From a virus, in the IMG/VR virus record IMGVR_UViG_3300023296_001674: a stretch of 64,000 nt of DNA. One strand, written 5' to 3'. The position numbers and the translations under genes were made by a program. Positions 42,278 through 57,836 of this stretch are shown here, in pieces. A model generated the notes under the pieces. It made no database searches, was not told the origin of the DNA, and saw nothing but the letters and a program-made list of their open reading frames with translations. Within the stretch, counting starts at the first letter, position 1. Every line of letters begins with the position of its first letter.

Positions 42278-42463
42278 ATGACAGAAGTATTAAAATCATT
42301 ATATATACAAAGTGAAATATCGCGCATAACTAAACGCATTAAACAATATAATCAAATTTACCATTCGTTAGAAATAAAAGATTTGAATTTAAAACGATTG
42401 ATAACTAATAAACAACGAGAAATAGATATCTTAGATATGATATCAAGAGGAAACAATCAATGA
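42278..42463 (+). CDS. Hypothetical small protein
   Basis: Coupled to the next gene (ATGA overlap). Confidence 0.45.
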   Translation: MTEVLKSLYIQSEISRITKRIKQYNQIYHSLEIKDLNLKRLITNKQREIDILDMISRGNNQ

Positions 42464-42783
42464 CTGAAATAGAAACAAGAGCTACATTATTCGCCGTAAA
42501 ATCTATGTTCCCAGCAGAACACATTGAAACAGCCAATCGATTAGAATGGTGTCAAGAAAACAACATGGAATTTTTTAATGTTAGCATTCGTGGCACCAAA
42601 GTGGGTGATGTATTTTATGACGAACAAGAAATGCAAGAAATTGGCGTTCTTGAATTGCTTGATGCAGATGGTGTCAAAAAAGGCGAGATAAACCTTGAAA
42701 CATTACCACCAATCAACATCGGTATGGGATTTGTGTTTCATGATGAAACAGATGCCGCAGCATTTAAGCTGCAATGGAACTAA
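42460..42783 (+). CDS. AFKLRW-tail family small protein (...DAAAFKLQWN)
   Basis: LEWCQEN plus C-terminal DAAAFKLQW. Confidence 0.65.
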   Translation: MTEIETRATLFAVKSMFPAEHIETANRLEWCQENNMEFFNVSIRGTKVGDVFYDEQEMQEIGVLELLDADGVKKGEINLETLPPINIGMGFVFHDETDAAAFKLQWN

Positions 42784-42977
42784 TAAAAGTATCAGTTGGC
42801 AGTGATACAAATTTAGTTGATAATTCTATAATATGGTGCAAAGAAAATAATATAAACTTTGAAAAATATGAACCAATTCATAAATCTAATAAATTTGATC
42901 GTGATATAATCGTTGGTTTTATTTTTTATTTTTTAGCAGAAGAGGACGCGTTTGCATTTAAACTGCGATGGGTTTAA
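42774..42977 (+). CDS. AFKLRW-tail family small protein (...DAFAFKLRWV)
   Basis: IIWCKEN plus C-terminal AFKLRW. Its ATG is embedded in the CAATGG (Q-W) codons of the upstream tail (10-nt overlap). Confidence 0.65.
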   Translation: MELIKVSVGSDTNLVDNSIIWCKENNINFEKYEPIHKSNKFDRDIIVGFIFYFLAEEDAFAFKLRWV

Positions 42978-42980
42978 GTG

Positions 42981-43009
42981 TTGACATTACCATATTATTA
43001 ATATATTAT
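42981..43009 (+). promoter_or_regulatory. sigma70-type promoter candidate
   Basis: TTGACA (42981-42986), 17 nt, TATTAT (43004-43009). 35 nt before the ATG at 43044. Confidence 0.55.
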
Positions 43010-43043
43010 ATAGTATAGTGAAAATAGAGAAGGATTATAAAAT

Positions 43044-43823
43044 ATGAAATTTACATTTCTAGGTGCAGGTAGCGCATTTACGATGGAAAACTATCAATCT
43101 AATATGATAGTGACATCAGATTCTGGAAAAAATTTATTAATTGATTGCGGTGGCGATGTGCGCCATAGTATGAAAGCGGCAGGATTTGGCGTAGCCGATA
43201 TTGATGCGATATATGTCAGTCATCTACATTCAGATCACACTTCTGGAATCGAATGGTTGGCGTTTAATACATATTTTAATGATGCCTTAAAACAACCAAA
43301 AATGTTTATCAATGAAAAACTTTCACGTGAACTTTGGGAAAATACACTACAAGGTGGACTTGGAAGCATACAAGGAAAAATAACCACCCTTGATTCATAT
43401 TTTGAAGTTACTCGTGTTATAAAAAACAAATGTTTCATTTGGGAGGATATTGAATTTAGACTCGTTCAAGTGATTCATTATATGGATGGATTTGACATTG
43501 TTCCATCATATGGTTTGTTGTTTACAGTGAATGGATTGAGATATTTCTTAACTACTGATGCTCAACATGCTCCTTCGCAAATTCAAGATTTTTACAACAT
43601 GAGTGATGTTATCTTTCAAGATTGTGAAACTACCCCGTTTGCATCCGGTGTTCATGCGCACTATGAAGAACTTATAACACTTAATGAAGAAACAAAAGCC
43701 AAAATGATACTATATCATTATTCAGATGGCGACAAGAAAGATTGCACCAACGATGGATTTAGATGTTGGGCAACAAATCAAATGGAAATTGATTTAAATA
43801 CAGGAACGGTAATTAACGCATGA
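43044..43823 (+). CDS. Metallo-beta-lactamase-fold hydrolase (RNase Z/PhnP-like)
   Basis: LLIDCGG, then the HxHxDH motif SHLHSDHTSG, then a later TTDAQH. Confidence 0.75.
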   Translation: MKFTFLGAGSAFTMENYQSNMIVTSDSGKNLLIDCGGDVRHSMKAAGFGVADIDAIYVSHLHSDHTSGIEWLAFNTYFNDALKQPKMFINEKLSRELWENTLQGGLGSIQGKITTLDSYFEVTRVIKNKCFIWEDIEFRLVQVIHYMDGFDIVPSYGLLFTVNGLRYFLTTDAQHAPSQIQDFYNMSDVIFQDCETTPFASGVHAHYEELITLNEETKAKMILYHYSDGDKKDCTNDGFRCWATNQMEIDLNTGTVINA

Positions 43824-44023
43824 CAAAAACGTGGTGGTTTTGGATAATGTTAGCATTGGGTATTATAATACAATATCCATTTGAATTATTCACTTATGGA
43901 ATGTTGCTAGAGTCAGGCGTGGCTGCATTTTTAGGACTCACATCTGGACTAAATATTTTAGAATATTATATGTGGGTTTTGGTGCTATATGCATATCATA
44001 TGGACAAATTATATATTAAATAA
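43820..44023 (+). CDS. Small membrane protein
   Basis: Two hydrophobic segments. ATGA overlap. Confidence 0.5.
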   Translation: MTKTWWFWIMLALGIIIQYPFELFTYGMLLESGVAAFLGLTSGLNILEYYMWVLVLYAYHMDKLYIK

Positions 44024-44055
44024 TATAGACAATCTAACACAAAAATGGTATTATA

Positions 44056-44364
44056 ATGGCAGAACTAAGTGAAGATGAAGAATTAAAACAACTATTAGAC
44101 GACGATGATTTAAGAGATTATTTCAACGGACGCGACCCTAATAGAAAAAAATCAGACCCTTTTATATCTGAAGAGACCGCGAACCGTCATAGAGGAAAAT
44201 CCACTGTTTTAACGACAAAGGATGTTCCAGAAGAAAAACAAGAAACACACGGAATATCTTTTACACAACACGTTAAAAGCATTAAAGAAACAGCTAGGCA
44301 ATACATGTGGATAGGCATATCTGTTGGATTATTCTTAGCAATTATCATAACCTTAATATTATAG
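44056..44364 (+). CDS. Tail-anchored membrane protein
   Basis: Charged N-terminal region and a C-terminal TM (WIGISVGLFLAIIITLIL). Confidence 0.5.
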   Translation: MAELSEDEELKQLLDDDDLRDYFNGRDPNRKKSDPFISEETANRHRGKSTVLTTKDVPEEKQETHGISFTQHVKSIKETARQYMWIGISVGLFLAIIITLIL

Positions 44365-44373
44365 AGGAAAAAT

Positions 44374-44745
44374 ATGCAATCTATCGATACATTTATGGCC
44401 GATTGGTCATCTAGACAAGATGCACCGGCACATACTTCCCGTGCTAAAATTTATGAACATTTATTAGTTGAGCTAACAAAGAGCGCACGCGACAATAAAA
44501 CGGTTCGTATTAACCACATTAAATCAACATATAACAGAAGTGGCGATTTAAGAACTTTCTTGAAATGGATTACTGGCGAAGCTGATCAAAAATCATTTTC
44601 GTTAACTATGGCAGTTCAACCATCTGGTCGTCATTTTGAAGATGCCCCCAACAAAGATAAGTTGAAAACTGTCGCAGAAAAGTATGGATTTAGGGTCAAA
44701 TTTGAATATCCTGATAATCAAGGGTATGAGATGGAACGAAACTAG
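44374..44745 (+). CDS. Hypothetical protein
   Basis: AGAGGAAA RBS. Followed by a strong terminator. Confidence 0.55.
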   Translation: MQSIDTFMADWSSRQDAPAHTSRAKIYEHLLVELTKSARDNKTVRINHIKSTYNRSGDLRTFLKWITGEADQKSFSLTMAVQPSGRHFEDAPNKDKLKTVAEKYGFRVKFEYPDNQGYEMERN

Positions 44746-44765
44746 GATTCCGAACGTATGTTAAC

Positions 44766-44805
44766 AAAAAAGGCTACAACGATAAATATTGGTGTAGCCT
44801 TTTTT
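44766..44805 (+). terminator. Rho-independent terminator
   Basis: AAAAAAGGCTACA-(loop)-TGTAGCCTTTTTT. GC-containing stem flanked by an A-tract and a T-tract, so possibly bidirectional. Confidence 0.75.
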
Positions 44806-44984
44806 ATGGGAAATTATTGATACATGGAAGACAAAAAAGATTTATGGTGGGTGCTTTACGAATATGGATTATATGATGCTATTAAAATTATATATCCCCC
44901 ACCTTGGAATTTTACATATATATCAAAAAACTAGCATATAAGGTTATTAAACTGATAATATAACTAATACGGGTGGAAAAAACT

Positions 44985-45221
44985 ATGAAAAACATTAGAC
45001 CTGCTACCGATTATAAAATATCTTGTCAAATTACTGAATACTTTGCGGAATATAACGAAATAAGCAAATGTGTTGAAATGCTATCAGAAAAAATAGATAA
45101 TACATCATTATCACCAAAAGAAATGGATATGATTCATCAAGAATTGGATGAAAACATGGGAAAACTGGAGGAAGTATCTGGCATCCTTGCAGATTTGGGT
45201 TATATACGATTATATGATTAA
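44985..45221 (+). CDS. Hypothetical small protein
   Basis: ATG 44985 after GGGTGGA. GTG 44973 is the alternative. Confidence 0.5.
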   Translation: MKNIRPATDYKISCQITEYFAEYNEISKCVEMLSEKIDNTSLSPKEMDMIHQELDENMGKLEEVSGILADLGYIRLYD

Positions 45222-45275
45222 ATAATGACTATTTACTAAATTTATGCTACAATAATAAAAAATAAGGAAGCATTA

Positions 45276-46064
45276 ATGAAGCAATTTACGAATAATATAT
45301 ACTTAGGCGATACTCTCGATATGATGAAACAGATTGATGACGAATCTATTGATCTGATTATCACCGATCCACCATACGGAATGGCTTATCACGGCAATAG
45401 ACGCAATGAAAAGGCTGATGCATGGGGAAATGTCGATAAAAAATTTGATCATATCGAAAATGATAGCGGCGAAGAGTTTGAAGCGTTATTGTTGAGTTAT
45501 ATCACGGAATGCCTACGTATAATGAAACCAGATACTGCAATGTATATGTTTTGTAGTTGGCACAAAGTTGGTTTCTTTCAAGCAGAACTTGAAAAGCATT
45601 TCACATTAAAGAATTTATTGGTGTGGAACAAAAATAATCATACAGTTGGTGATTTGTACGGCAGTTATGCACCAAAGCACGAACTTGTGTGGTTCTGCCA
45701 TAAAGGTCGCGTGACTATGCAAGATACCAAAAGACACACCGATGTATTAGATCACGATGATGAAACTATATTGAATGATATGGTTATAATGGATCATAAA
45801 AAAATACATGATCCAGTTCATCCAACAATGAAACCGATTGATATGTTACGAAAGTTTGTTAGAACATCAAGCAAAGAGAATGATTTGATATTTGATGGAT
45901 TTATGGGTAGCGGCTCAACTGCGGTTGCAGCAGCAAAAGAAGGTAGACAGTTTATGGGTGCAGAACTATCACCTGAATATCATAAAATAGCATCAGATAA
46001 AGCAAATGCAGCCATACAGGATAAGGAAGCAGAAGATGCTAGTAAAAGTTACCTTGAATGGTAA
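45276..46064 (+). CDS. DNA methyltransferase, beta-class (N6-A or N4-C)
   Basis: Motif IV IITDPPYG is N-terminal. HPTMKP. Motif I FDGFMGSGST is C-terminal. Confidence 0.85.
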   Translation: MKQFTNNIYLGDTLDMMKQIDDESIDLIITDPPYGMAYHGNRRNEKADAWGNVDKKFDHIENDSGEEFEALLLSYITECLRIMKPDTAMYMFCSWHKVGFFQAELEKHFTLKNLLVWNKNNHTVGDLYGSYAPKHELVWFCHKGRVTMQDTKRHTDVLDHDDETILNDMVIMDHKKIHDPVHPTMKPIDMLRKFVRTSSKENDLIFDGFMGSGSTAVAAAKEGRQFMGAELSPEYHKIASDKANAAIQDKEAEDASKSYLEW

Positions 46065-46066
46065 AT

Positions 46067-46291
46067 TTAGCCCCAGCGTAGCTTAAAAGCCATCGCTGAT
46101 TCAAGATTAAAAAATAAAACACCAGTGGAACACATGCATGCACCACTGGTGTATCCATCTAAAATAAAATCTTCTTTTACTTTTAGATTTTCAAATAACC
46201 AATTATCTATAAATTTTTCAGATATCACTGTATCATATTCAAAATATAAATCACTTGTTCTTCTTATTTTATAAAATTCTTCTACAGCCAT
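46067..46291 (-). CDS. AFKLRW-tail family small protein (...SAMAFKLRWG)
   Basis: NWLFEN plus tail. Its ATG is embedded in the AGATGG (R-W) codons of the upstream member. Confidence 0.65.
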   Translation of the reverse strand: MAVEEFYKIRRTSDLYFEYDTVISEKFIDNWLFENLKVKEDFILDGYTSGACMCSTGVLFFNLESAMAFKLRWG

Positions 46292-46488
46292 CTCATTTTG
46301 AATCCCATTGAATCTTCTTCATCTAACAACCAGACCACCGATGATGGTGGTTTTCGGACATCGGCAGAATCACATATGGCATAACTGTCTTCATCGATAT
46401 TGTCGATCAGCCATAGTTTAACTTCATCCATTTCGTTGTTGGAAATATAGAATTTTGTGTTGTTTATTTGACGTATTTTCATATCCAT
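46282..46488 (-). CDS. AFKLRW-tail family small protein (...[10 protein letters not shown])
   Basis: KLWLIDN plus tail. 10-nt overlaps on both sides. Confidence 0.65.
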
Positions 46489-46847
46489 CGTAATTTAAAT
46501 GCAACCACGTCGCTTTCATTATTGAATACAAATTTATACGTTAAATTATTTCGTTTGTCTTCAGTATAAGACCGGACGTAATATTCTTCAACGTTTTCTT
46601 TGAGCCACTCATTCATGTTATTTACCGTGACTTCATCATAGTTTTGCAACAACGCATAATATGATTGCTGTTCAACAATTTCAAATGATGGCTCCAATGA
46701 TTTAGACTGAACTGTGTGTATCGTTTCACTGCATATATCAACGCATTCATTGCAAATATATACATCTACACTAGCAATTAAATGTTTTACTTGCGATTGA
46801 TCTTTTTTACAAAATGAACATGTAGGTACTTTATTTTTTATAGCCAT
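46479..46847 (-). CDS. ClpX-type C4 zinc-finger fused to an AFKLRW-tail domain
   Basis: [34 protein letters not shown] versus E. coli ClpX [34 protein letters not shown] (recalled). C-terminal NEWLKEN...[10 protein letters not shown]. Confidence 0.75.
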
Positions 46848-47188
46848 TTTAATTTAAACGCTGTAACGTCTTCCTTGCATGTAAAGGTGAATTCAACGGT
46901 ATTAGTGCCGTTGATCGAATAATTGGTTTTGTTTTCAAATATGTATACTATATCATTATCCACGCACCAATCATCTATTAAATCAACGCCGTCTGCAATC
47001 ATGGCTGAATATACGTCATACGTTACAATAAATTTATACTTAAAAAATTTTTCTACTTGAGAATGAAAGCCAACTATATCATTTAATAACGTAATATTTG
47101 TTGGATTGTTTATTTTTTTAGTATCGACATCAAAATCTTGTAATATTTCAAATAATACTGCTTTGCGTAATGTATCTATATCATTCAT
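46838..47188 (-). CDS. AFKLRW-tail family small protein (...[10 protein letters not shown])
   Basis: DDWCVDN plus tail. Confidence 0.65.
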
Positions 47189-47207
47189 AATACTCGCCCA
47201 TTATTTA

Positions 47208-47555
47208 TTATATCCATCTTAATTTAAACGCCATCGCAGATTCTTTGTCATCATAAAACAACACTTCTATTTCTACCATTCCATTATCATCTTCGTCCCA
47301 ACCAGACCAATCCCAACGCCAATCACTAGTGCAATTTTCAAGCAACCAATCATGTTCTTCGTGATTGTTAAAATCCCATTCTTCACTAACTTTCGTTCCG
47401 TTTTTTTCACGACGTGGTGGATTTATTTTTGTCCCTGATATTTTAATATTAACTGTATTTTCGGATATGATCGATTTGTTATATGATGGCGTCGGTATAG
47501 ACGCTGTCGATACTTCTAATGTATATTTTCTACCACAATGAATATCGCCTTCCAT
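47208..47555 (-). CDS. AFKLRW-tail family small protein (...SAMAFKLRWI)
   Basis: Start moved to MEGDIHCG (47555), which has an AAAGAGA RBS and its own promoter upstream. DWLLENC plus tail. Confidence 0.6.
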   Translation of the reverse strand: MEGDIHCGRKYTLEVSTASIPTPSYNKSIISENTVNIKISGTKINPPRREKNGTKVSEEWDFNNHEEHDWLLENCTSDWRWDWSGWDEDDNGMVEIEVLFYDDKESAMAFKLRWI

Positions 47556-47591
47556 GATTAATCTCTTTTTAATTGTTAATACTTTTTCAGT

Positions 47592-47621
47592 ATAATACCA
47601 AATATATACTGATAATGTCAA
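47592..47621 (-). promoter_or_regulatory. sigma70-type promoter candidate (minus strand) for the 5-gene family cassette
   Basis: Minus-strand TTGACA (47621-47616), 18 nt, TATTAT (47597-47592). Confidence 0.5.
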
Positions 47622-47627
47622 TATCTC

Positions 47628-47655
47628 TTGACATACATTAATGATGTGATATAGT
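47628..47655 (+). promoter_or_regulatory. sigma70-type promoter candidate (plus strand), back-to-back with the 47592 promoter
   Basis: TTGACA (47628-47633), 16 nt, TATAGT (47650-47655). 33 nt before the ATG at 47688. The two -35 boxes are 6 nt apart. Confidence 0.55.
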
Positions 47656-47687
47656 GTTCTTATAACTGATCTTGAAAGGATTTTATA

Positions 47688-48431
47688 ATGGCTTATGTTC
47701 GCGCAGTTCAAAACATTTTAGATATGGAAATTGAAGATTTATATTTTGAAAGTGATGGAAAATATCACAAAAAAGGCGAGTTGAGGCGATTGGGTGCACG
47801 CACAAAATACGTCAAATTAAAGATTTTATTTTATAGTGCACAAGACAACATGGATGACGAATTGGCATCACAAGCAGAAAAAGCAGCAGATGAAATTAAA
47901 AATCCTTGTTACGTCGGCGATGAACGTCGCGAGGAAATTTTAGCAAAAATATCACACATCACAGAAGAAGAACGTGCTCAAGGTAAAACGAAACATGCCA
48001 CATTTTCAGTGGAGGATCGCAACTGGCGCACAAAAGGTGTTCATGGTATATTTCATAATGAATCTAATTCTATTGTTATTTTCAAAGAGAAACATGGTGA
48101 TTCATTGTATGATATGAGTTCTGCATTTAATGCTGCTAGCGCGTTTCTTACTGTGCTACGCGAACGATTGAATGATGGTTGGTATAACGATCAACTCGAG
48201 GATGAAGATCATGAATCCAACCAATTGGATTTATTGAAATCCAATGAAATTATATTAACCGAAGAACAGGAAGCTAGAAAAATTGTCGACATGGCTACCA
48301 ACCGTAAAATAACAGGAGATTTTATTCGTGCTGGAAAAGATGCGTATGAATTCTTGCAAGATCGTAGCGAATATGAATATGGTTGTTTTTCTATTGAGAC
48401 GCCATCGGTTGCTGATTTTACATTGACATAA
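47688..48431 (+). CDS. Hypothetical protein
   Basis: GAAAGGA RBS. No motif recognised. Confidence 0.55.
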   Translation: MAYVRAVQNILDMEIEDLYFESDGKYHKKGELRRLGARTKYVKLKILFYSAQDNMDDELASQAEKAADEIKNPCYVGDERREEILAKISHITEEERAQGKTKHATFSVEDRNWRTKGVHGIFHNESNSIVIFKEKHGDSLYDMSSAFNAASAFLTVLRERLNDGWYNDQLEDEDHESNQLDLLKSNEIILTEEQEARKIVDMATNRKITGDFIRAGKDAYEFLQDRSEYEYGCFSIETPSVADFTLT

Positions 48432-48450
48432 TTGATTAATGTGTTATTAT
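48423..48450 (+). promoter_or_regulatory. sigma70-type promoter candidate (extended -10), followed by an 8-bp hairpin
   Basis: TTGACA (48423-48428), 16 nt, TGtTATTAT (48442-48450). Hairpin TCTATATG-AAA-CATATAGA at 48451-48469, just before the RBS. Confidence 0.5.
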
Positions 48451-48483
48451 TCTATATGAAACATATAGAAAAGGATTATCGCT

Positions 48484-48879
48484 ATGGTACAAAAAATGAC
48501 ACGTGACGAATTTCAAAAAATGGTTGATGACGCGGCTGGTTATCAGTGCAAGAAAACTGATGGAGTGGTGACTGCACTTAAAATCGAATGGTCTGTTGGC
48601 GGTCAATCTGGTGGTAGTTGTTGGGATGAAGGAGACTCGACATATCATGGAACAAGCGGTGAAGCAGAGCCAGAGTTCGAAGACCTTGATAGTATCTTGC
48701 TGGCGGTTGCCCCACAACTCAGTTTTTTACATTATAAAAAATTAATGCAAAAAATTGAAACCGACGATTACCGTCAAAACGATTACTATGGAAACTACAC
48801 CGATTACGCAACAAAAACAATCACAGTCGATGATATTTGGGTGTTTTTGATTGAGTATGACATGATTGAACAAGCATGA
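48484..48879 (+). CDS. Hypothetical protein
   Basis: AAAGGA RBS. Confidence 0.55.
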   Translation: MVQKMTRDEFQKMVDDAAGYQCKKTDGVVTALKIEWSVGGQSGGSCWDEGDSTYHGTSGEAEPEFEDLDSILLAVAPQLSFLHYKKLMQKIETDDYRQNDYYGNYTDYATKTITVDDIWVFLIEYDMIEQA

Positions 48880-49256
48880 CGCATATATTTTTAATAATCG
48901 GTTTGCCCGGTAGTGGTAAAACACACTTAGCAAACCGATTAAAAAATACTTGTGGTTTAATCATAGATGATATTGTATCATTAGATCAGTTGCCTGATGA
49001 CGGTAATATCATCATCACTGATGTAAATTTATGCGATAATGGCATCTACCATAAAGCATGTGATAAGTTAAAAGAAAAATATGACAATGATGTTAACATA
49101 CATTCAATATTTTTTCAAAACAATTCTTATGCTGCACGATGCAATGTTGAATATAGAAACGACGGACGCGATGTTGAAGGAACTATTCGGAGGTTTGAGA
49201 AGATTTATAAACCGCCTATTAATGCAAGGAAAATATGGAATGGTGTTAACGGTTAA
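48876..49256 (+). CDS. Small P-loop NTPase/kinase-like protein
   Basis: Walker A IGLPGSGKTHLANRL at the N-terminus. ATGA overlap. Confidence 0.55.
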   Translation: MTHIFLIIGLPGSGKTHLANRLKNTCGLIIDDIVSLDQLPDDGNIIITDVNLCDNGIYHKACDKLKEKYDNDVNIHSIFFQNNSYAARCNVEYRNDGRDVEGTIRRFEKIYKPPINARKIWNGVNG

Positions 49257-49308
49257 TCAGTTCTATGATTATTTGATAATTGTAATATATTTTCCGCTAA
49301 TTTTTGCA

Positions 49309-49337
49309 TTGACATTATCTATTTTTACTGTTAAAGT
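49309..49337 (+). promoter_or_regulatory. sigma70-type promoter candidate
   Basis: TTGACA (49309-49314), 17 nt, TAAAGT (49332-49337). 35 nt before the cysS ATG. Confidence 0.45.
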
Positions 49338-49371
49338 GTATTATTATTTATCATAAAAAGGATTAATTATA

Positions 49372-50673
49372 ATGACACATATATCGTTATATAATAGCAT
49401 GTCGAGAGAAAAAGAAAAATTCAAACCAATAGACGATTCTCGCGTAACTATGTATTATTGCGGTATCACCCCTTATGATAAACCACATCTTGGTAACGTA
49501 AGAGCGAGTATCACTGGTGATATGATATATAGACTGTTGCGGGTTTTTTATAAATCAGAAAATGTCATATATGCTAGAAATATTACTGACATAGATGATA
49601 AAATCGAAGCAAAAAGCCAAGAAACAGGAAGGTCTGCGATTGATATAACGAATGAAACTATTCAATGGTTTCATGAAACTATGAAAGTATTACATGTATT
49701 GCCACCGGATTTGGAGCCAAGGGTTTCTGATAATGAAGAATCTATGATGGATATGATTAACATATTACTTGATAAAAATATCGCATATAAATCAAATAAT
49801 GGTGACATTTATTTTGAATTAGATAAATTTCCAGAACACGGAAAATTATGCCGCCACAGTCGCGAAGATTTAAATATAAATGAAGAACATTCTTCAGAAA
49901 AAAAACATCCACAAGATTTTGTTTTATGGAAAGAAAATCATCAACGATTTGGTTGGCATATTGAATGTTCCGCGATGATTAAAAAGCATTTGGGTGACAC
50001 TATCGATATTCATGGTGGTGGTGGTGATTTACGTTTCCCACATCATGAGAATGAAATAGCTCAAAGTGAAACTGCTAATGGTGTCCCATTGGCTAATTAC
50101 TGGATGCATAACGGTATGATTACAGTGAACGGAAAGAAAATGGCTAAATCTACTGGAAGCTTTATTACAGTCGATGAAGCACTAGATCGTGTTCCCGGCG
50201 AAGCGATACGATTTTACATGCTTAAGACGCATTACCGTAAACCGTTTGATTGGTCGTGGGATGGTTTGATGGAAGCCAAGTCTGAACTTGATGGGTTATA
50301 TAGAAAGATGCAGAAACGCACTTATGTTAAAATGGGTGGCGTGTCAGTACAAGTATTATATGCGTTGGCTGATGATTTGAATACACCATTGGTGATATCA
50401 GAATTATACAAAGAAGCGGATAAGGAAATATCTTCTTTATTGGATTCGGCGCAGCTATTGGGTATACTGAATCATACACCAGAAGAATGGTTTCATGGCA
50501 CAACGAAAGATTCATTACTTGATGCATCGTCAATCGAGGCACTTATTGAAGTACGGAAACTATTGAAAGAAAATGGCGACTATGAATCTGCGGATATAAC
50601 AAGAGATATATTATTAGGACAAGGCATTATACTTGAAGATAAACCAGATGGGACAACTTGGCGAAAAATATGA
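49372..50673 (+). CDS. cysS: Cysteinyl-tRNA synthetase
   Basis: MYYCGITPYDKPHLGNVRA (HIGH-type), GWHIECSAM, HGGGGDLRFPHHENEIAQSE, KMAKSTGS (KMSKS). Confidence 0.9.
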   Translation: MTHISLYNSMSREKEKFKPIDDSRVTMYYCGITPYDKPHLGNVRASITGDMIYRLLRVFYKSENVIYARNITDIDDKIEAKSQETGRSAIDITNETIQWFHETMKVLHVLPPDLEPRVSDNEESMMDMINILLDKNIAYKSNNGDIYFELDKFPEHGKLCRHSREDLNINEEHSSEKKHPQDFVLWKENHQRFGWHIECSAMIKKHLGDTIDIHGGGGDLRFPHHENEIAQSETANGVPLANYWMHNGMITVNGKKMAKSTGSFITVDEALDRVPGEAIRFYMLKTHYRKPFDWSWDGLMEAKSELDGLYRKMQKRTYVKMGGVSVQVLYALADDLNTPLVISELYKEADKEISSLLDSAQLLGILNHTPEEWFHGTTKDSLLDASSIEALIEVRKLLKENGDYESADITRDILLGQGIILEDKPDGTTWRKI

Positions 50674-50921
50674 TTATAACACAACAAACTAATAGTCTAG
50701 ATGAGTGTAGATATGTATGTTTGGACGACAATCAAAATCTTACAGAATTAATGGATTTACTATATTGGCTGTCTGAAAATTGTTATAGAGTGCCAGGATT
50801 GGAATGGGTGTTTAGACGATTGGATCGATATAATCAAATAATTATCACATTTGGTTTTAATTCATTAAGTGATTGTTATAATGATGAATATCATATGGCA
50901 TTCAAGTTAAAATGGTTGTAG
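50670..50921 (+). CDS. AFKLRW-tail family small protein (...YHMAFKLKWL)
   Basis: ATGA overlap with the cysS stop. LLYWLSENC plus tail. Confidence 0.65.
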   Translation: MIITQQTNSLDECRYVCLDDNQNLTELMDLLYWLSENCYRVPGLEWVFRRLDRYNQIIITFGFNSLSDCYNDEYHMAFKLKWL

Positions 50922-51005
50922 TATAATGTAAATAATAGATAGACAATTACTTAATAAAGTGTTATATTTAAAGAACATAATATTTTAAAATAGGAAGAGT
51001 TATAT

Positions 51006-52060
51006 ATGTTATATAATGACGATTGTTTAGTCGCAATGAAAAAATTAATTGAAGAAAATACACAAGTGGATTCTATTGTAACCGATCCGCCATATCATCT
51101 AACCAACACAAATGATGAAAATAAAGGTTTCATGGGTAAACAATGGGATGGTGGCGATATTGCGTTTAATGTTGAAACATGGAAACTCGCATACGATCTT
51201 TTAAAACATGGTGGTCATTTAATAGCGTTTAGTGCATCAAGAACATATCATCATATGGTGGTAGCCATTGAAAATGCGGGATTTGAAATACGTGATCAAC
51301 TTATGTGGCTTTATAGTTCAGGTTTTCCTAAAGGACATAATATATCTAAAGGATTAGAAAAAACCGGTGCAACACCTGTTGACATTGAAACATGGGAGGG
51401 ATGGAATACGGTGTTAAAGCCAGCACATGAACCAATAGTTTTAGCCAGAAAGCCATTAGAACCTGACTCGACTATTGCGCAAAACGTGTTGAAACATGAC
51501 ACAGGTGGTTTGAATATAGCCGACTGTAGCGTGGGCGATGAAAAAAGATTCAATCCAAGTGCAAGTAGCAATAAAATTTATGGTCAATTTGAAGGATCAG
51601 AAAAAGATGGTAGAGATTCTACAGGTAGATATCCAACAAACGTAATTCATGATGGATCAGATGATGTCAATGACGCTTTTCAAAAATATGCCCAATCGGG
51701 TGAAAATCCTATTCGTTTTTTTATGGGTCTAAAACATCTGAAACTGAACGCAATCATGGATCAGCAAATATTAAAAATACACACCCAACTGTTAAACCAC
51801 AAGATTTGATGCGTTATTTATGTCGTCTTATTACGCCTAAAAATGGAATAGTGTTTGATCCATTTATGGGTTCTGGATCAACCGGAATAGCTGCTAAAAC
51901 TGAGGGTTTTGATTTTATTGGCATTGAACGCGAATTAGAATATTTTGAAATATCTAAAAAACGAATAGAAACTGCATATCATGTTCCTAACAAAAAAGTA
52001 GTGTTGTCTACAGACAACAATGATTCTGTGCCAGACCTTGATGATATATTCAAAGAATAA
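51006..52060 (+). pseudogene. Beta-class DNA methyltransferase interrupted by a frameshift at a T7 run (pseudogene, sequencing error, or slippage-dependent)
   Basis: ORF 51006..51809 carries motif IV VTDPPYH. ORF 51806..52060 carries motif I FDPFMGSGST. Frame 2 is open from 51706 and reads ...FFYGSKTSSETERNHGSANIKNTHPTVKPQDLMRYL. The frames meet at TTTTTTT (51716-51722), and one extra T would give a single ~351-aa ORF. Confidence 0.75.
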
Positions 52061-52080
52061 ATGTAATAGATTTAAATAAA

Positions 52081-52329
52081 ATGTGTAATCCATATATAAA
52101 AATATTTGAATATATCATGGATACACAATATTCAGAGATATATAAATGGTTGCGCAATCACGGCGAAGATGGTATAGATTGGTGCATAGAAGACTACAAT
52201 CAACAATATGTAATCAATGGTATGGATAATAACGTGAGTGTGGAATGTGATATGGTTGTAAAAATATATAATATTGATGTAGCGGCAGTTTTTGAAATGG
52301 AGCAAGTTGGTGGGCATAATGGAAAATAA
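52081..52329 (+). CDS. Divergent AFKLRW-family-like small protein (tail degraded to ...VAAVFEMEQVGGHNGK)
   Basis: IYKWLRNHGEDGIDWCIEDY resembles the family N-motif. The C-terminal motif is degenerate and extended. Confidence 0.45.
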   Translation: MCNPYIKIFEYIMDTQYSEIYKWLRNHGEDGIDWCIEDYNQQYVINGMDNNVSVECDMVVKIYNIDVAAVFEMEQVGGHNGK

Positions 52330-52540
52330 AAATAGACATATATCAGAAACAGGGCGTCATATTCTTGAAACACATCCATATGTAGTTGAGAATATTGATG
52401 ACAGCGATTGTTTTGTTGATATCATATATTGGACACGGGCGGTGTTTGGTGGTAAGGAAGAACGGGTAATAACATGTTGGAATAATTATTATTTTAGACA
52501 TGAAGTCGATTGTTTTAATTTTAAAATGAGGTGGTTGTAA
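52319..52540 (+). CDS. AFKLRW-tail family small protein (...DCFNFKMRWL)
   Basis: ATG 52319 after GGTGGG. TTG 52292 is the alternative. Confidence 0.6.
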   Translation: MENKNRHISETGRHILETHPYVVENIDDSDCFVDIIYWTRAVFGGKEERVITCWNNYYFRHEVDCFNFKMRWL

Positions 52541-53133
52541 TGATTATAGGATTGACTGGTGGAATGGCATGTGGTAAATCGACATGTTCTAATATGATTA
52601 AGAAAATGGGAATTCAAGTGTTTGATGCTGATGCAGAAGCACACAAGTTGCTTGAGAGAGATGTGCGTGTTATTCGTGATATACAAGATCAACTACCACA
52701 GGCGGTGGACACAATTGATAGTAAAGAATTTATTAGTCGTGATAAATTATCGAAATTAATGCTAAATGATGATTCAGTTATTGAAATAGTCACTGAAGCA
52801 ATAACTATTCCATTAAAATATGCTTTACTCCGATTTATTGAACGCAATCGAGATAATAGATTCGCCGTTGTGGATGCGCCGATGTTATTTGAGTATAAGT
52901 GGGATACATATTGTGAAAAAATAATCACAGTTGATGCACCGAGAGATCGACAAGAATTGCGAATAATGAAAAGACATGGTATGACTGAATTAAAAATGAT
53001 GATATTACTTGATTTGCAGATGACATCAGAAGAACGAAATTTAAAATCAGATTATGTCATAGATAATGGATCGAGTTTATATAATACCAATGAACAAATA
53101 GTAAATATATTCTTGACATTGCAGCAAATATAA
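52540..53133 (+). CDS. coaE: Dephospho-CoA kinase
   Basis: MIIGLTGGMACGKST.....K..GIQVFDADAEAHKLL. ATG 52540 (TAATG overlap), or GTG 52531 embedded in the upstream AGGTGG (10-nt overlap). Confidence 0.85.
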   Translation: MIIGLTGGMACGKSTCSNMIKKMGIQVFDADAEAHKLLERDVRVIRDIQDQLPQAVDTIDSKEFISRDKLSKLMLNDDSVIEIVTEAITIPLKYALLRFIERNRDNRFAVVDAPMLFEYKWDTYCEKIITVDAPRDRQELRIMKRHGMTELKMMILLDLQMTSEERNLKSDYVIDNGSSLYNTNEQIVNIFLTLQQI

Positions 53134-53141
53134 AGTAAAAT
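53113..53141 (+). promoter_or_regulatory. sigma70-type promoter candidate
   Basis: TTGACA (53113-53118), 17 nt, TAAAAT (53136-53141). 27 nt before the ATG at 53168. Confidence 0.55.
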
Positions 53142-53167
53142 ATATTTTTAATCAATGGAGTATAAGA

Positions 53168-53329
53168 ATGGCAAAAAGTTCAAGAGGGCGCGGAAAAGGA
53201 TCAACTGGAACCCGTAGCAAATCAAAACATAATAGCAAACGCGGTAAAGGCGTATTGAAAAAGGCAGCACGTCGTGTGACACGAACTAATTGTGTCCGCC
53301 GACCATGTCGTCAAGCAAGAAAGACATAA
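53168..53329 (+). CDS. Very basic 53-aa protein (missed by the 60-aa cutoff)
   Basis: TGGAG RBS. MAKSSRGRGKGSTGTRSKSKHNSKRGKGVLKKAARRVTRTNCVRRPCRQARKT. Own promoter. Confidence 0.5.
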   Translation: MAKSSRGRGKGSTGTRSKSKHNSKRGKGVLKKAARRVTRTNCVRRPCRQARKT

Positions 53330-53333
53330 TACA

Positions 53334-53936
53334 ATGCAGTTTCCATTCATCAAATCAAATGTAACATTGGGGCTATTCATGAAAAATGAATATGTCAAAG
53401 TGAAATCACGATATACCAAATTATATGAACTTGCGAGACATTATTGGTTTGAATTGGTTTGTTTATCTATTTTAATGATGGTTATTATATCAAGTATGGA
53501 TAAAACATATACGCCAGTGGTTATAACACCAGTAGGTGTGGAAACAACATCAAACACTATCGCCGTTCAACCATCAAATACATACATTGATTTAAATTCA
53601 ATTGTGCGATATAAATCGACGATGATGGACAATGAAACTGTTGGTGATATAGAACGGCACGATCTTATTAATGCGCATGAAAACAAGTTTGTTGGTCAAC
53701 GTATAATTCACACTGGCAAACTTGATATAATAGATACAAAATATGATCATTATGCATTATATATATCAACCGCCAGTATATATGATGACGCGAAGTGTAA
53801 AATTGATATAGATGATAAAAAAATAATATATACACTACGCGAGGACGCAATTGTAACTATAAAAGGGTCAATTGAAGAAATCACGTTCAATTATAATATT
53901 GCAGATTGCGTTGTTGTGATGCCTGATGAAAAATAA
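53334..53936 (+). CDS. Single-pass membrane protein
   Basis: First ATG after the basic ORF. TM WFELVCLSILMMVIISSM. Confidence 0.5.
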   Translation: MQFPFIKSNVTLGLFMKNEYVKVKSRYTKLYELARHYWFELVCLSILMMVIISSMDKTYTPVVITPVGVETTSNTIAVQPSNTYIDLNSIVRYKSTMMDNETVGDIERHDLINAHENKFVGQRIIHTGKLDIIDTKYDHYALYISTASIYDDAKCKIDIDDKKIIYTLREDAIVTIKGSIEEITFNYNIADCVVVMPDEK

Positions 53937-54190
53937 TGAGTGATGAAAAATCTATATTTCATGACGTTGAAGAATCCAACACCGACGTGGGAATTGAGTA
54001 TACACTTTGGGGAAGTTATGATATAATCATCGAAGTTATGAATTGGCTACATGAACATTATCCATCGACGTGGGGAATTGAATGGACTGTCGATCATCAT
54101 AATAGACACGACGCGATAAACGTTGTATTCAATTTAAAAGAATGCAATACTGATGCAGCACTTATGGGGTTTAAATTGAGATGGTTGTAA
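53936..54190 (+). CDS. AFKLRW-tail family small protein (...ALMGFKLRWL)
   Basis: VMNWLHEHY plus tail. TAATG overlap upstream. Confidence 0.65.
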   Translation: MSDEKSIFHDVEESNTDVGIEYTLWGSYDIIIEVMNWLHEHYPSTWGIEWTVDHHNRHDAINVVFNLKECNTDAALMGFKLRWL

Positions 54191-54570
54191 AAAATTTTAT
54201 AGCATTGCCACACGATCCGTATTTTTCTAATGTAGTAATAACTAATAGAGAGCCGGATAAAATGAGAGTGTATATACAACATAAAGGAGCAACGCCGTAT
54301 AATAATCAATCACATACAACATTATCTATATTGGCTACATCTGTTTATGTAATAGAATTAAACACCATGCCAATAGCAAAATATGTTTTTATAATGTTGT
54401 ATCATTCAGATGTCATATTGATAAAAAATTTTGTTAAACAAAACAACCTTGCTTGTTCGTTTTCAACGGGAAAAATTATAAAGGATCGAAATAATAATAA
54501 AAAGACTGGTTATCTATGTTCTACTAATGATGAAACCGCCGCAATGGCTATTAAAATGATGTGGAGTTGA
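54181..54570 (+). CDS. AFKLRW-family-like protein (tail ...AAMAIKMMWS)
   Basis: Its ATG is embedded in the AGATGG of the upstream tail (10-nt overlap). Degenerate tail. Confidence 0.5.
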   Translation: MVVKNFIALPHDPYFSNVVITNREPDKMRVYIQHKGATPYNNQSHTTLSILATSVYVIELNTMPIAKYVFIMLYHSDVILIKNFVKQNNLACSFSTGKIIKDRNNNKKTGYLCSTNDETAAMAIKMMWS

Positions 54571-54573
54571 ATA

Positions 54574-54849
54574 ATGAAAATTAACTGCGTGGAAAAAATG
54601 GATCATAAACCGGCATATGAAACTGTTGATGTTTGTAATGACGGAATACAGGTACATATAATAAAACAGTGCCCGGCAAAATATACATGTTTGTTTCCTA
54701 CTAGAAATGAGGCAATTATTTTTATTCGTGAATTGAAAAAAATACCAAGTATTGATTATCAACAGTATCATTTGGGTGATAGAAATCTATTGGAAGTTAA
54801 TATTCATTCGAAAGACGCATTATTTTTGTTTTCATTGAGATGGTTATAA
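54574..54849 (+). CDS. LRW-tail subfamily protein, tandem copy 1 (...ALFLFSLRWL)
   Basis: About 91 aa. Collinear with the next two ORFs (..HKP.....). Confidence 0.6.
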   Translation: MKINCVEKMDHKPAYETVDVCNDGIQVHIIKQCPAKYTCLFPTRNEAIIFIRELKKIPSIDYQQYHLGDRNLLEVNIHSKDALFLFSLRWL

Positions 54850-54850
54850 T

Positions 54851-55129
54851 ATGTCAATACATATAGAATGCGTAAATCGAATGATTGAACGACCTGTATT
54901 CGTAGACATCGAAACTGTTGGTGGTAGAGGTGTTATAATACAAGACCAGCATGATTCGATACCAGCAGAATTTAATATATTTTCAGATACGAATAAAGAG
55001 TTGCATAAAATAATGAATGAAATATCACGTATGCATGGTGTAACAATTACAGATACTCGTGATCTCTGGGCAACTATTAATGTTAATACAAAAGAATCAT
55101 TGCTTTTGTTTTCATTGAGGTGGCGGTAA
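54851..55129 (+). CDS. LRW-tail subfamily protein, tandem copy 2 (...SLLLFSLRWR)
   Basis: Shares IPAEFNIF / VPAEFICN and the K(E/D)(S/T/A)LL(L/I)F(S/W)LRW ending with copies 1 and 3. Confidence 0.6.
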   Translation: MSIHIECVNRMIERPVFVDIETVGGRGVIIQDQHDSIPAEFNIFSDTNKELHKIMNEISRMHGVTITDTRDLWATINVNTKESLLLFSLRWR

Positions 55130-55130
55130 T

Positions 55131-55412
55131 ATGACGGAATTGTATATACATCAAACTGTGCGGATGCACCATAAGCCATCATTTGAACAATACAACACCT
55201 TGGGTGGTGGTGGTTACATCAATTATACGAATGAGTTTGTACCAGCAGAATTTATTTGCAACGCAGATGATTCTGCAACATTACTTGCGTTTATAGACGA
55301 GTTGAGAATATTACCCGGTCTTCAAGTTGACAGAGAGCATCATCAATCTGAGATTACCGTTAAAATTCATTCAAAAGAAACATTATTAATATTTTGGTTG
55401 AGGTGGATGTGA
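55131..55412 (+). CDS. LRW-tail subfamily protein, tandem copy 3 (...TLLIFWLRWM)
   Basis: Same length class and motifs as copies 1 and 2. Confidence 0.6.
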   Translation: MTELYIHQTVRMHHKPSFEQYNTLGGGGYINYTNEFVPAEFICNADDSATLLAFIDELRILPGLQVDREHHQSEITVKIHSKETLLIFWLRWM

Positions 55413-55570
55413 TGTTATATAGATTTAAAGATATGGACGTTAAGCCGGATGAAAACATAAAAGAATGGTGCAATGAAAATTTAACAGACGGTGAAGTAGA
55501 ATTTGGTGCTACTACCATTTACATACAATCGGAGATAGATGCAATGGCGTTTGAATTAAGATGGATTTAA
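55412..55570 (+). CDS. AFKLRW-tail family small protein, 52 aa (...DAMAFELRWI), missed by the 60-aa cutoff
   Basis: TGATG overlap. IKEWCNEN plus DAMAFELRWI. An in-frame GTG at 55403 would recreate the 10-nt overlap. Confidence 0.6.
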   Translation: MLYRFKDMDVKPDENIKEWCNENLTDGEVEFGATTIYIQSEIDAMAFELRWI

Positions 55571-55572
55571 CA

Positions 55573-56295
55573 TTATTTATGTTTACAATTGTCATTATGC
55601 CACCTATTTAATGCTCCATAATTTCGAGTTGATAAATTGCAATGAGGGCATGTTTTATATGGCTGTGATAATTTTGCTTTAGACATTTTATTTTTAGCCG
55701 ATATTGTTTTAGGTTTTCCTTTTGCCGCATTGCTCATTTTTTGTTTAGTTGTTTCGGAGTGTGTTCTTCCGTATTTACCTGTTAATGCCGCGCTAATACA
55801 TTTTTTAGTTTCTTTGCTGAGTTTTTTACCTATATTCGCCAAAAATAATTTTTGTTTGGTTTCTGCTGTATGTTTTTTGCCTACCCCCGCTAAAGATAAT
55901 TTTTGTTTGGTTTCTTCTGATAATTTCTTACCTTTATGAGCATTGCTTATTTTTAATTTAGTTTTTTCAGTATGTTTGTATCCACTTTTACAATAAAATT
56001 TATTGTCGCCGTTGTGTTGATTTAGATAATTTGTATTATTGGCTGCGTCAATTTTTGATAAAACTTTGCTTTCCCATAATCTGGCTTTTTTTGGATTATT
56101 TGGAAATTCTTTACGTATTTCATATATAAAATTTTCTAATCCATATTTTTGTATAAGGCTTTCGATAATTGCCGATGAAGTAAAATATGTAGACCACAAA
56201 TCAGATGGGTGGCAGTTTTTAGCATATCTTACCCCATAATAATGTTGGCCCGTTTCTAAAAAAGTTATGCGATATGTATAAGGTATATGATTCAT
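55573..56295 (-). CDS. GIY-YIG homing endonuclease (Seg-like) with NUMOD3 repeats
   Basis: YTYRITFLETGQHYYGVRY (GIY-YIG). Five repeats of HTEKTKLKISNAHKGKK-type modules. C-terminal CPHC..C Zn motif. Confidence 0.85.
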   Translation of the reverse strand: MNHIPYTYRITFLETGQHYYGVRYAKNCHPSDLWSTYFTSSAIIESLIQKYGLENFIYEIRKEFPNNPKKARLWESKVLSKIDAANNTNYLNQHNGDNKFYCKSGYKHTEKTKLKISNAHKGKKLSEETKQKLSLAGVGKKHTAETKQKLFLANIGKKLSKETKKCISAALTGKYGRTHSETTKQKMSNAAKGKPKTISAKNKMSKAKLSQPYKTCPHCNLSTRNYGALNRWHNDNCKHK

Positions 56296-56425
56296 CTTGA
56301 TTTTCCTTGGCTTTTATGATAGTATAAATAATAAAGTAGTGGGACAGCCCAACTTCCTTGGCGGGTTTTAGTTGTTGAAACCAACTAATTACCACTATAT
56401 CTATTTATTTTTTGGAGTTAAAATC

Positions 56426-57643
56426 ATGAATGACCATCGCGAGATTGCTACAGCTTTAGACTTATTTCATTTTGAGGAGCATTCACCAGGAATGGTATAT
56501 TGGCATCCTGAAGGGTTTAAATTATATCGAACCATAGAAGAATATATGCGAAGCATGCATGAAAAATATGGATATAAAGAAATTAGAACACCAATAATGG
56601 TCAATAAATCTTTATGGAAATTGTCTGGTCATTGGGATAAATTTCAAGACAATATTTTTATTGCTGGTGAAATAGGTGAAGTAATAAGCGATGAGTTAAT
56701 TTATACTGACGGGCAATATGTAATGTCTCCGATGAATTGTCCAAATCATATACAAGTGTACCAAAAGGGAACAAAGTCTTACAAGATGCTACCTGATCGT
56801 TTATTTGAATTTGGTGTGGTGCATCGCAATGAACCATCTGGATCATTGGCTGGCATTATGAGATTGCGAAGTTTTACACAAGATGACTCGCATATACACT
56901 GTACTGAAGATCAAATTTTGAGTGAAACAACCAATTTTATCAATATGCTTCAAGAAGTTTATTCTAAGTTTGGGTTCAATGACGTCGCTGTAAAACTTGC
57001 CACTCGATGTGAAGAACGCATTGGCGACGATGCCAGTTGGGATAAAGCCGAGAAAGCATTAGAAGATGCTTGTATACATCTTGGATTGGAATACACAATT
57101 AATCCCGGTGAATCAGCATTCTATGGCCCAAAACTTGAGTTCACGCTACAAGATAGCCTTGGTCGTGATTGGCAATGTGGAACCATCCAGATTGATTTTA
57201 ACATGTGCGAACGATTGGGTGCTACATACATTGACGAAAATGGTGATAAGAAACATCCGGTATTGATTCACCATGCTGTATTGGGAAGTTTGGAACGCTG
57301 GGTTGGTGTATTGCTTGAGAACAGCAATGGTGAACTACCGTTGTGGCTTGCCCCTACACAAGTGGTTGTTGCCAGTATTACCAGTGATGTTAATGACTAT
57401 GCTGAAGAGAAAATGGTTACACTTAGTGGTATCGGATATCGAGTTGAGTTGGATGACCGAAATGAAAAAATCGGTAAGAAAATCAAAGACGCACAGAAAC
57501 GACGTATTCCATATATGCTTATTGTGGGTAAAAAGGAAAAAGAGAATCAAATGGTCAACGTTCGCAAATTGAACGGCGACCAAGATGATATGGAGTTGAT
57601 AGATTTTATAGGATCATTCGTCAAATCTACAAATGAAAGGTGA
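56426..57643 (+). CDS. thrS: Threonyl-tRNA synthetase, catalytic + anticodon-binding domains only (no TGS/editing region)
   Basis: Starts MNDHREIATALDLFHF.E.SPGMVYWHPEG, the segment that opens the ThrRS catalytic core. HRNEPSG, FTQDDSHIHC, class II motifs. C-terminal anticodon-binding domain. TGGAG RBS 8 nt before ATG 56426. Confidence 0.85.
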   Translation: MNDHREIATALDLFHFEEHSPGMVYWHPEGFKLYRTIEEYMRSMHEKYGYKEIRTPIMVNKSLWKLSGHWDKFQDNIFIAGEIGEVISDELIYTDGQYVMSPMNCPNHIQVYQKGTKSYKMLPDRLFEFGVVHRNEPSGSLAGIMRLRSFTQDDSHIHCTEDQILSETTNFINMLQEVYSKFGFNDVAVKLATRCEERIGDDASWDKAEKALEDACIHLGLEYTINPGESAFYGPKLEFTLQDSLGRDWQCGTIQIDFNMCERLGATYIDENGDKKHPVLIHHAVLGSLERWVGVLLENSNGELPLWLAPTQVVVASITSDVNDYAEEKMVTLSGIGYRVELDDRNEKIGKKIKDAQKRRIPYMLIVGKKEKENQMVNVRKLNGDQDDMELIDFIGSFVKSTNER

Positions 57644-57836
57644 ACGTGTTTTTGATAAAATGAAACTCCCATATCCATGTTACGTTAATTATGGCGTTGA
57701 CCCAGATATGGTAATCGAATGGTGTGATGAGAATATCGAGTGTAAATGGGGGTATTTTCATCAAAATAACGGAACTCTTTATATATACATTACAGATGAT
57801 GTATATGGAATTGCATATAAGTTAAAATGGTCTTGA
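57633..57836 (+). CDS. AFKLRW-tail family small protein (...YGIAYKLKWS)
   Basis: VIEWCDEN plus tail. Overlaps the thrS end by 11 nt (alternative ATG at 57660). Confidence 0.6.
   Translation: MKGERVFDKMKLPYPCYVNYGVDPDMVIEWCDENIECKWGYFHQNNGTLYIYITDDVYGIAYKLKWS

Follow-up and report, generated by a model that had tools for sequence, protein, structure and literature searches.

We analyzed a stretch of 64,000 nucleotides (nt) of DNA from the IMG/VR virus record IMGVR_UViG_3300023296_001674, in the following called the window. It is part of a metagenomic contig of 570,750 bp, which is huge-phage-like and has a guanine plus cytosine (GC) content of about 34%. The source of the window is treated here as a huge phage. 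The window carries a family of genes for small proteins which end in a common FKLRW tail, and the analysis indicates that the tail codons of one family gene double as the initiation region of the next gene. This would be ordinary translational coupling in two modes, and we give this reading a probability of about 0.72.

According to this reading, the last four codons and the stop codon of a family gene would form the initiation region of the following gene in co-directional arrays. The fixed end of the tail, which consists of Trp, one further residue and the stop codon (W-x-stop), permits an ATG at the offsets -10, -4 and -1 in a single compatible frame (negative offsets denote overlaps in nt). 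A start at -7 cannot occur, as the final base of the Trp codon TGG is G. In the first mode, proposed for about 80% of the junctions, TTG-AGG-TGG (Leu-Arg-Trp) would act as a strong Shine-Dalgarno (SD) sequence, GAGGTGG, located 2-8 nt before an ATG at -4 (xxA-TGA), -1 (TAATG or TGATG), 0 or +1. In the second mode, proposed for about 6% of the family, an A-ending Arg, Lys or Gln codon precedes the Trp codon, xxA-TGG itself would provide the ATG and the two genes would overlap by 10 nt. Initiation at this ATG would be carried out by ribosomes terminating 7 nt downstream (termination-reinitiation), perhaps aided by the A/U-rich TTTAAATTA leader.

Seventeen open reading frames (ORFs) of the window have the terminal motif (E/D)DA-x-AFKL(R/K/Q)W-x-stop or one closely similar to it, and the stop codon of family genes is nearly always found one codon past the Trp. 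Membership in the family is based on the alignments A1 and A3 and on profile searches. 16 of the 17 genes are located within 42460..57836, the 17th at 11523..11786 (+). The tails of the 16 genes start at the following positions.

Plus strand: 42772, 42966, 50910, 52529, 54179, 54559, 54838, 55118, 55401, 55559 and 57825
Minus strand: 47219, 46849, 46490, 46293 and 46078

A first-pass annotation of this DNA had reported five junctions of the form xxA-TGG-NNN-stop with an identical overlap of 10 nt. All five were found again at the same coordinates by the ORF listing and by direct reading, and they are the only overlaps of this length between ORFs of at least 50 amino acids (aa) in the 64 kb. 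Other overlaps in the window are mostly -4, -1 and -11. The upstream ORF ends in ..FK(L/M)(Q/R/K)W-x at each of the five junctions, and the starts in independent public gene calls for the same contig are the five ATGs at -10.

42772..42783 (+): junction 1, CAA-TGG-AAC-TAA; upstream ORF 42460..42783 (..AFKLQWN); ATG 42774-42776 opens 42774..42977, a 67-aa family member
46282..46293 (-): junction 2, AGA-TGG-CTG-TAG; upstream ORF 46488..46282 (..GFKMRWL); ATG 46291-46289 opens 46291..46067, a 74-aa family member
46479..46490 (-): junction 3, CGA-TGG-ATA-TGA; upstream ORF 46847..46479 (..AFKLRWI); downstream ORF 46488..46282, 68 aa
46838..46849 (-): junction 4, AAA-TGG-CTA-TAA; upstream ORF 47188..46838 (..AFKLKWL); ATG 46847-46845 opens 46847..46479, 122 aa
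54179..54190 (+): junction 5, AGA-TGG-TTG-TAA; upstream ORF 53936..54190 (..GFKLRWL); ATG 54181-54183 opens 54181..54570, 129 aa, with the divergent tail ..AIKMMWS

Several of the downstream genes offer hardly any other start. In gene 42774 the first 40 codons hold no other ATG, GTG or TTG. An AlphaFold (AF2) model of its 67-aa product (predicted local distance difference test score, pLDDT, 92.9) has the topology beta1(4-8)-alpha1-beta2-beta3-alpha2, and a later start would remove strand beta-1, which the model places at residues 4-8. The product of gene 46847 carries a ClpX-type zinc finger ahead of the family domain. Pfam PF06689 matches its residues 9-44 (E=1.9e-15), so the start has to lie before codon 9. 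The open frame of this gene begins 6 nt upstream of the ATG without another start codon, and none follows within 40 codons. For gene 46291 the next in-frame candidate is the GTG at codon 22, which would cut the aligned beta-1 segment (alignment A3). Thus, at three junctions at least, the -10 ATG is the only canonical start which retains the conserved N-terminal element, either the ClpX zinc finger or beta-1. The pattern is in part automatic, however: the F-K codons TTT-AAA create a TAA stop of the downstream frame 9 nt ahead of the ATG, which necessarily makes the -10 ATG the first possible start there. Judged from these sequences, the ATG in xxA-TGG is very likely the true start at four junctions and possibly also at 46488.

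For comparison with related arrays, the pattern AMAFKL[QRK]W was used to collect further loci, which gave 4 viral and 80 metagenomic loci (84) in addition to the window. The 508 family tails were reduced to 464 non-redundant ones by dropping junctions of more than 85% identity. The arrays are dense, with up to 23 family genes in 13 kb, and the junctions are co-directional. The 464 junctions were classified as follows.

ATG at -4 to +15: 369 junctions
ATG at -10 only: 27 junctions, 4 of them from the window
Proximal GTG or TTG only: 10 junctions
GTG or TTG at -10 only: 2 junctions
No start within 15 nt: 45 junctions
Contig end: 11 junctions

About 80% of the junctions have a start at -4 to +15, mostly at -4 and -1. 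The commonest offsets among the 369 junctions with a proximal ATG are -1 (132), -4 (129), +1 (33) and 0 (25). The state with an ATG at -10 only was found at 4 of the 17 window junctions (4-5, as 46488 is ambiguous) and at 23 of the 447 in the other loci, and both members share it in 9 homologous junction pairs. A lack of conservation in homologous arrays had been named beforehand as one result that would refute the proposed overlap; with these 23 further non-redundant junctions and 9 pairs, this check did not refute it. The 10-nt overlap thus recurs in homologous arrays, as a minority mode.

Among tails with an open downstream frame, an ATG at -4 or -1 is missing in 32 of 74 with an A before TGG versus 17 of 230 in which the base is G, a roughly six-fold difference in frequency (Fisher's test: odds ratio 9.5, p=1.7e-11). 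The loss of the canonical start tracks the A before TGG, which argues that the -10 ATG substitutes for it. In most of those 32 tails the next in-frame start candidate is distant or absent. Junctions with both ATGs, like junction 3, are common in the related loci, and the evolutionary route may have led from a proximal ATG via both ATGs to the -10 ATG only. Two further observations concern the ends of the family genes. In the 84 loci (L001-L084), TGA is the stop codon of 44% of the family genes despite a GC content of about 36%, largely because of the ATGA overlaps. Met (ATG) is the last residue of 59 among the 508 tails, and combinations such as GTGA or TGATG frequently result from it.

The signal at the majority of the junctions became visible in the codon usage, where the gene bodies of the same family members served as reference for the tail positions of the non-redundant set (all 508 tails behave similarly).

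Tail Arg codon: AGG, 67% vs 8% in gene bodies (p=1e-144)
Tail Leu codon: TTG, 53% vs 17% in gene bodies (p=1e-65)
Tail Lys codon: AAG, 38% vs 20% in gene bodies (p=7e-16)
Codon of the last tail residue (Leu): TTA, 64% vs 37% in gene bodies (p=8e-13)

The strong bias is restricted to the K, L, R and last codons, and the upstream E, D, A, A and F codons stay near background. TTG-AGG-TGG contains GAGGTGG, which matches the SD consensus GGAGGUGA, and A-ending last codons such as TTA together with a TGA stop create the ATGA overlaps. Other genes of the window have AAGGA(G) at -13 to -9, thus the GAGG of the tail at -12 is normally placed. The share of AGG among the Arg codons is 229 of 306 in tails with an ATG at -4 to +15 versus 13 of 36 in tails without it (odds ratio 5.3, p=7e-6). 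Selection on the L-R-W codons exceeds what the protein requires, since the bias is limited to the signal codons and is stronger with a gene behind. The first-pass annotation had missed this main signal, AGG-TGG as an SD sequence in about 80% of the junctions.

The strength of the putative SD sequences was calculated as duplex energy against the 3' end of the 16S ribosomal RNA (16S rRNA), with an anti-SD sequence that may differ from that of the host. The mean values are:

Proximal ATGs after tails: -8.4 kcal/mol
Generic genes: -5.2 kcal/mol
Random positions: -3.4 kcal/mol
-10-only ATGs: -1.7 kcal/mol

The value of the last group indicates that the -10 starts have no SD sequence. Their dependence on termination-reinitiation is therefore probable; the missing SD sequence is consistent with this mechanism and no proof of it. 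Judging from the sequence features described so far, the -10 ATGs would also be used in vivo.

Several points weigh against this reading and have to be set beside the evidence given above. Gene 46488 has a second in-frame ATG at 46482, 6 nt downstream, which forms a canonical ATGA (-4), and the start is ambiguous. For gene 54181 there is one nearby alternative, the TTG at codon 9, which lacks an SD sequence. The junctions of the survey are phylogenetically non-independent despite the removal of redundancy above 85% identity. AGG still accounts for 36% in tails without a detected downstream gene, and part of the AGG bias may be inherited, due to missed ORFs or otherwise caused. The motif xxA-TGG is present in 12 of the 17 window tails and opens a long ORF in only 5 of them, which leaves 7 of the 12 unused. 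Moreover, A-ending codons correspond to the background preference (AGA 45%, AAA 79%, CAA 76%), so the ATG arises without selection in many tails.

The last two points would also be expected if the overlap were a pure by-product. The ATG in xxA-TGG would then result from preferred AGA, AAA or CAA codons beside the obligatory TGG, and packed genes would capture the nearest ATG; the -10 starts would be real, with an overlap that is unselected and constrains nothing. Homologous junctions of 77-99% identity which switch between AGG and AGA and keep the proximal ATG fit this explanation, as does the TTT-AAA stop just upstream, which always makes the -10 ATG the first candidate. However, the loss of the -4/-1 ATG is strongly tied to the presence of the -10 ATG, and the 9 homologous pairs which share the -10-only state argue that an A, once adopted, is under purifying selection as a start-codon base. 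The by-product explanation fits most of the data and differs from our reading mainly in emphasis; as a full account we consider it unlikely.

It was also considered that the -10 ATGs are not used at all, with starts at a non-canonical codon near the stop (e.g., ATA in xxA-TAA) or further downstream, in which case the overlap would be an artefact of ORF calling. This would agree with the duplex energies at -10-only ATGs, which are weaker than at random positions, and with the many -10-only junctions which read xxA-TAA, one mutation away from ATGA. Long overlaps of the phase-2 class are, in addition, rare in prokaryotes (PMC10666635). On the other hand, genes 42774 and 46847 offer no ATG, GTG or TTG within 40 codons, while their conserved elements begin at residue 4 (beta-1) and residue 9 (zinc finger). 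ATA is a very poor initiator and would have no SD sequence to help it, and the compensation between the -10 and the -4/-1 ATGs would be unexpected if the former were irrelevant. Unused -10 ATGs are thus quite improbable.

Two further explanations concern the tail as a whole. It might mainly be a DNA-level recombination sequence which shuffles genes and lets arrays grow, with the initiation signals being secondary. Such a cassette would be comparable to the PeSL elements which separate small ORFs in T4-type phages. The density of the arrays (up to 23 members in 13 kb) would fit, and so would the fact that the 3' end of each gene bears an initiation signal for any gene behind it. However, the synonymous positions of E, D, A, A and F are near background and only the codons of the SD sequence and the start are strongly biased; the tails make use of all six codons for Leu as well as for Arg; and array members are only about 20-35% identical. 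We hold this explanation to be very improbable. The idea that the entire tail is homogenised at the DNA level was rejected, as strong codon bias does not extend over all of it and affects only the codons of K, L, R and the last residue.

Practically negligible, in our estimation, is the idea that the downstream ORFs are made by programmed -1 frameshifting in the tail without separate initiation, giving fusion proteins. It could appeal to the downstream gene always being in the -1 frame (equivalent to +2) and to TTTAAA in the tail, which resembles part of a slippery site. But the phase of TTT-AAA is XXX-YYY and not X-XXY-YYZ. The TAA stop in the -1 frame would demand a shift within the last four codons, where no slippery heptamer exists. 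Moreover, the family as a rule initiates each gene separately, as shown by the strong SD sequences at starts located at -4, -1, 0 and +1. The tail was thus rejected as a programmed -1 frameshift site, with TTT-AAA out of phase and itself producing the TAA stop in the -1 frame.

Within the window, internal SD sequences in the upstream coding region, with GAGGTGG 5-7 nt before the ATG, were found at the starts 52540, 55131 and 55412.

52526..52542 (+): SD-type junction, ATG-AGG-TGG-TTG-TAA-TG; GAGGTGG 5 nt before ATG 52540 (TAATG, 1-nt overlap), the coaE start
55115..55133 (+): SD-type junction, TTG-AGG-TGG-CGG-TAA-T-ATG; GAGGTGG 7 nt before ATG 55131
55398..55414 (+): SD-type junction, TTG-AGG-TGG-ATG-TGA-TG; GAGGTGG 5 nt before ATG 55412 (TGATG, 1-nt overlap)

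Two of these junctions bear on GTG codons at 52531 and 55403, which had been offered as further starts in the -10 register. Both codons are present. As starts they were ruled out by the ATG at -1 with its strong SD sequence and by the public gene calls, which use the ATGs. A GTG at -10 arises automatically from an AGG Arg codon with a downstream gene in that frame, and a GTG or TTG at -10 is needed in only 2 of the 464 junctions. In the match of CoaE to the TIGR00152 profile, the first profile position falls on residue 5 if the protein starts at the GTG and on residue 2 if it starts at the ATG. Gene 55412..55570 encodes a 52-aa family member and has the same length of 52 aa in the public gene call.

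The first-pass annotation had gone further and proposed that protein motif and coupling signal constrain each other, which may explain the invariance of the RW dipeptide and the array-like spread of the family. That tail and initiation signal share nucleotides was borne out, and the protein does act on codon choice. The reverse direction did not hold. R is retained in 36 of 45 tails without a gene close behind, the ATG in xxA-TGG occurs in only about 30% of the tails and is needed in about 6%, and the use of all six Arg and all six Leu codons at these positions speaks against it as well. The invariance of W cannot be judged from the tail set, since both the pattern used to collect the loci and the tail regular expression (W at -2) demand it; among 163 fetched family proteins, mostly top profile matches, Trp is penultimate in 150 (92%). 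R and W are conserved for protein-level reasons, and the coupling acts on synonymous choice and on the free last residue. The same -10 overlap recurs because the tail is invariant.

In operons, SD sequences are known to lie within the 3' coding end of the upstream gene. The family resembles this arrangement in that GAGGTGG is located in the upstream coding sequence, 2-8 nt before the ATG. It differs in that the signal is encoded by a conserved L-R-W peptide motif and that a synonymous shift of about eight-fold extends over hundreds of paralogous junctions. For the lysis gene of RNA phages, a scanning model attributed to Adhin and van Duin (1990) reportedly holds that a terminating ribosome restarts at an upstream start codon. 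The -10 start of the family would be analogous, as it lies a short distance upstream of the stop and has no SD sequence of its own. In contrast to the lysis-gene restart, this is a DNA phage with paralogous small proteins. Reinitiation works efficiently only where genes overlap or lie very close together, and an overlap of 10 nt falls into the less common phase 2 class of long overlaps in prokaryotes, which is rare in 1,695 genomes (PMC10666635). Like known coupled gene pairs, the family genes are co-directional and start a few nt from the upstream stop, and they show the frame relation of the known -4/-1 overlaps, with most junctions exactly at -4 or -1 (PMC6728339, PMC10666635). Unlike the common pairs, five window junctions have a -10 overlap without an SD sequence, and the length of the overlap is set by a conserved protein tail, which repeats the same 10 nt. 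The mechanism would be textbook translational coupling and already known, so nothing is changed in the knowledge of it. The unusual feature is the repetition of the -10 overlap.

The FKLRW-tail family itself is undescribed. The tail domain gave no significant match to Pfam or PHROGs profiles, and a full-text literature search for "FKLRW" returned nothing relevant. A scan of 185,579 prokaryotic species, one genome each, revealed no relatives and thereby no prophage clue to the host. A search with the family profile resulted in at least 2,099 clusters at 50% identity. The model described above points to a ferredoxin/ACT-like beta-alpha-beta-beta-alpha fold, and members inside one array share the low identity already mentioned. 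Some database proteins of 143-183 aa (P0026, P0028, P0029, P0034, P0052) carry two family domains in one chain. These could be tandem fusions or read-through of array junctions.

Several family genes of the window differ from the common form. The fusion of the ClpX-type C4 zinc finger (PF06689) with the FKLRW-tail domain in 46479-46847 (-) lies a few kb from the gene of a ClpA-like ATPase. The same fusion recurs in an unrelated metagenomic locus (L046, near position 928), where the homologue starts at offset 0, straight after an AGG-TGG tail. These sequence features hint that the family may act with the Clp machinery, as adaptor or decoy. Three tandem paralogues of 91-93 aa at 54574-55412 (+), with the tails LFSLRWL, LFSLRWR and IFWLRWM and a distinct N-terminal region, form a sub-family within the array; two of their junctions read TAA-T-ATG with the SD sequence in the tail. 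The ORF 52081-52329 (+), which overlaps the next family ORF, has an N-terminal helix of the family type (W-x-x-(E/D)N-like), but ..DVAAVFEMEQ replaces DAMAFKLRW and is followed by 7 extra residues. It looks like a decayed family member which has lost the Trp tail.

Besides the family genes, the following genes were identified.

40005-42263: ClpA-like ATPase gene
43044-43823 (+): gene of an MBL-fold protein
45276-46064 and 51006-52060: DNA methyltransferase genes
49372-50673: CysRS gene
52540 (+), start: CoaE gene, 197 aa in the public gene call
55573-56295 (-): NUMOD3 homing-endonuclease-like gene with repeated NUMOD3 motifs
56372-57643: ThrRS gene
Window/contig: DnaJ gene
Window/contig: peptide deformylase gene

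The best matches of the ClpA-like ATPase are found in jumbo phages (e.g., Atu_ph07, Phosso and PA5oct) and are distant, with 42-48% identity. A megablast search of 16 kb against 50,697 phage records gave no relatives at the DNA level. The MBL-fold gene comes right after two FKLRW-tail family genes. In the public record its product is assigned to PF23023 (Anti-Pycsar Apyc1) and Lactamase_B, and the NCBIfam matches, to RNase Z and cyclic-nucleotide phosphodiesterase, are weak. The protein may act against host defence as a nuclease of cyclic nucleotides. An N6/N4 DNA methyltransferase (PF01555) seems to be encoded in two ORFs, 51006-51809 and 51806-52060 (+), of 267 and 83-84 aa with a 4-nt overlap, and may be a frameshifted or a truly split gene. 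The NUMOD3 gene is located between the family array and the ThrRS gene, on the opposite strand.

For annotation, these results mean that the -10 ATGs should be accepted as starts of these small genes and the GTGs in the same register rejected. The main value lies in a large uniform set of junctions and in an undescribed family, by which a large phage protein family without a database model is brought to light. With more than 400 paralogous junctions that all follow a single fixed geometry, the set is an unusually clean natural dataset, in which a conserved peptide motif and an initiation signal share nucleotides. As SD-driven and SD-less starts adjoin in the same context, it could be used to probe how reinitiation depends on distance and frame. 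More tentatively, and with considerable doubt on our side, the FKLRW-x tail might be a portable, self-propagating expression module which carries a full initiation signal for the gene behind it and which let the arrays of huge phages grow to sizes between 10 and more than 20 genes. If so, a duplicated or inserted gene would be expressed and stoichiometrically coupled without evolving a ribosome-binding site of its own, and the requirements of the protein and of initiation spacing would together keep the W-x-stop end in place.

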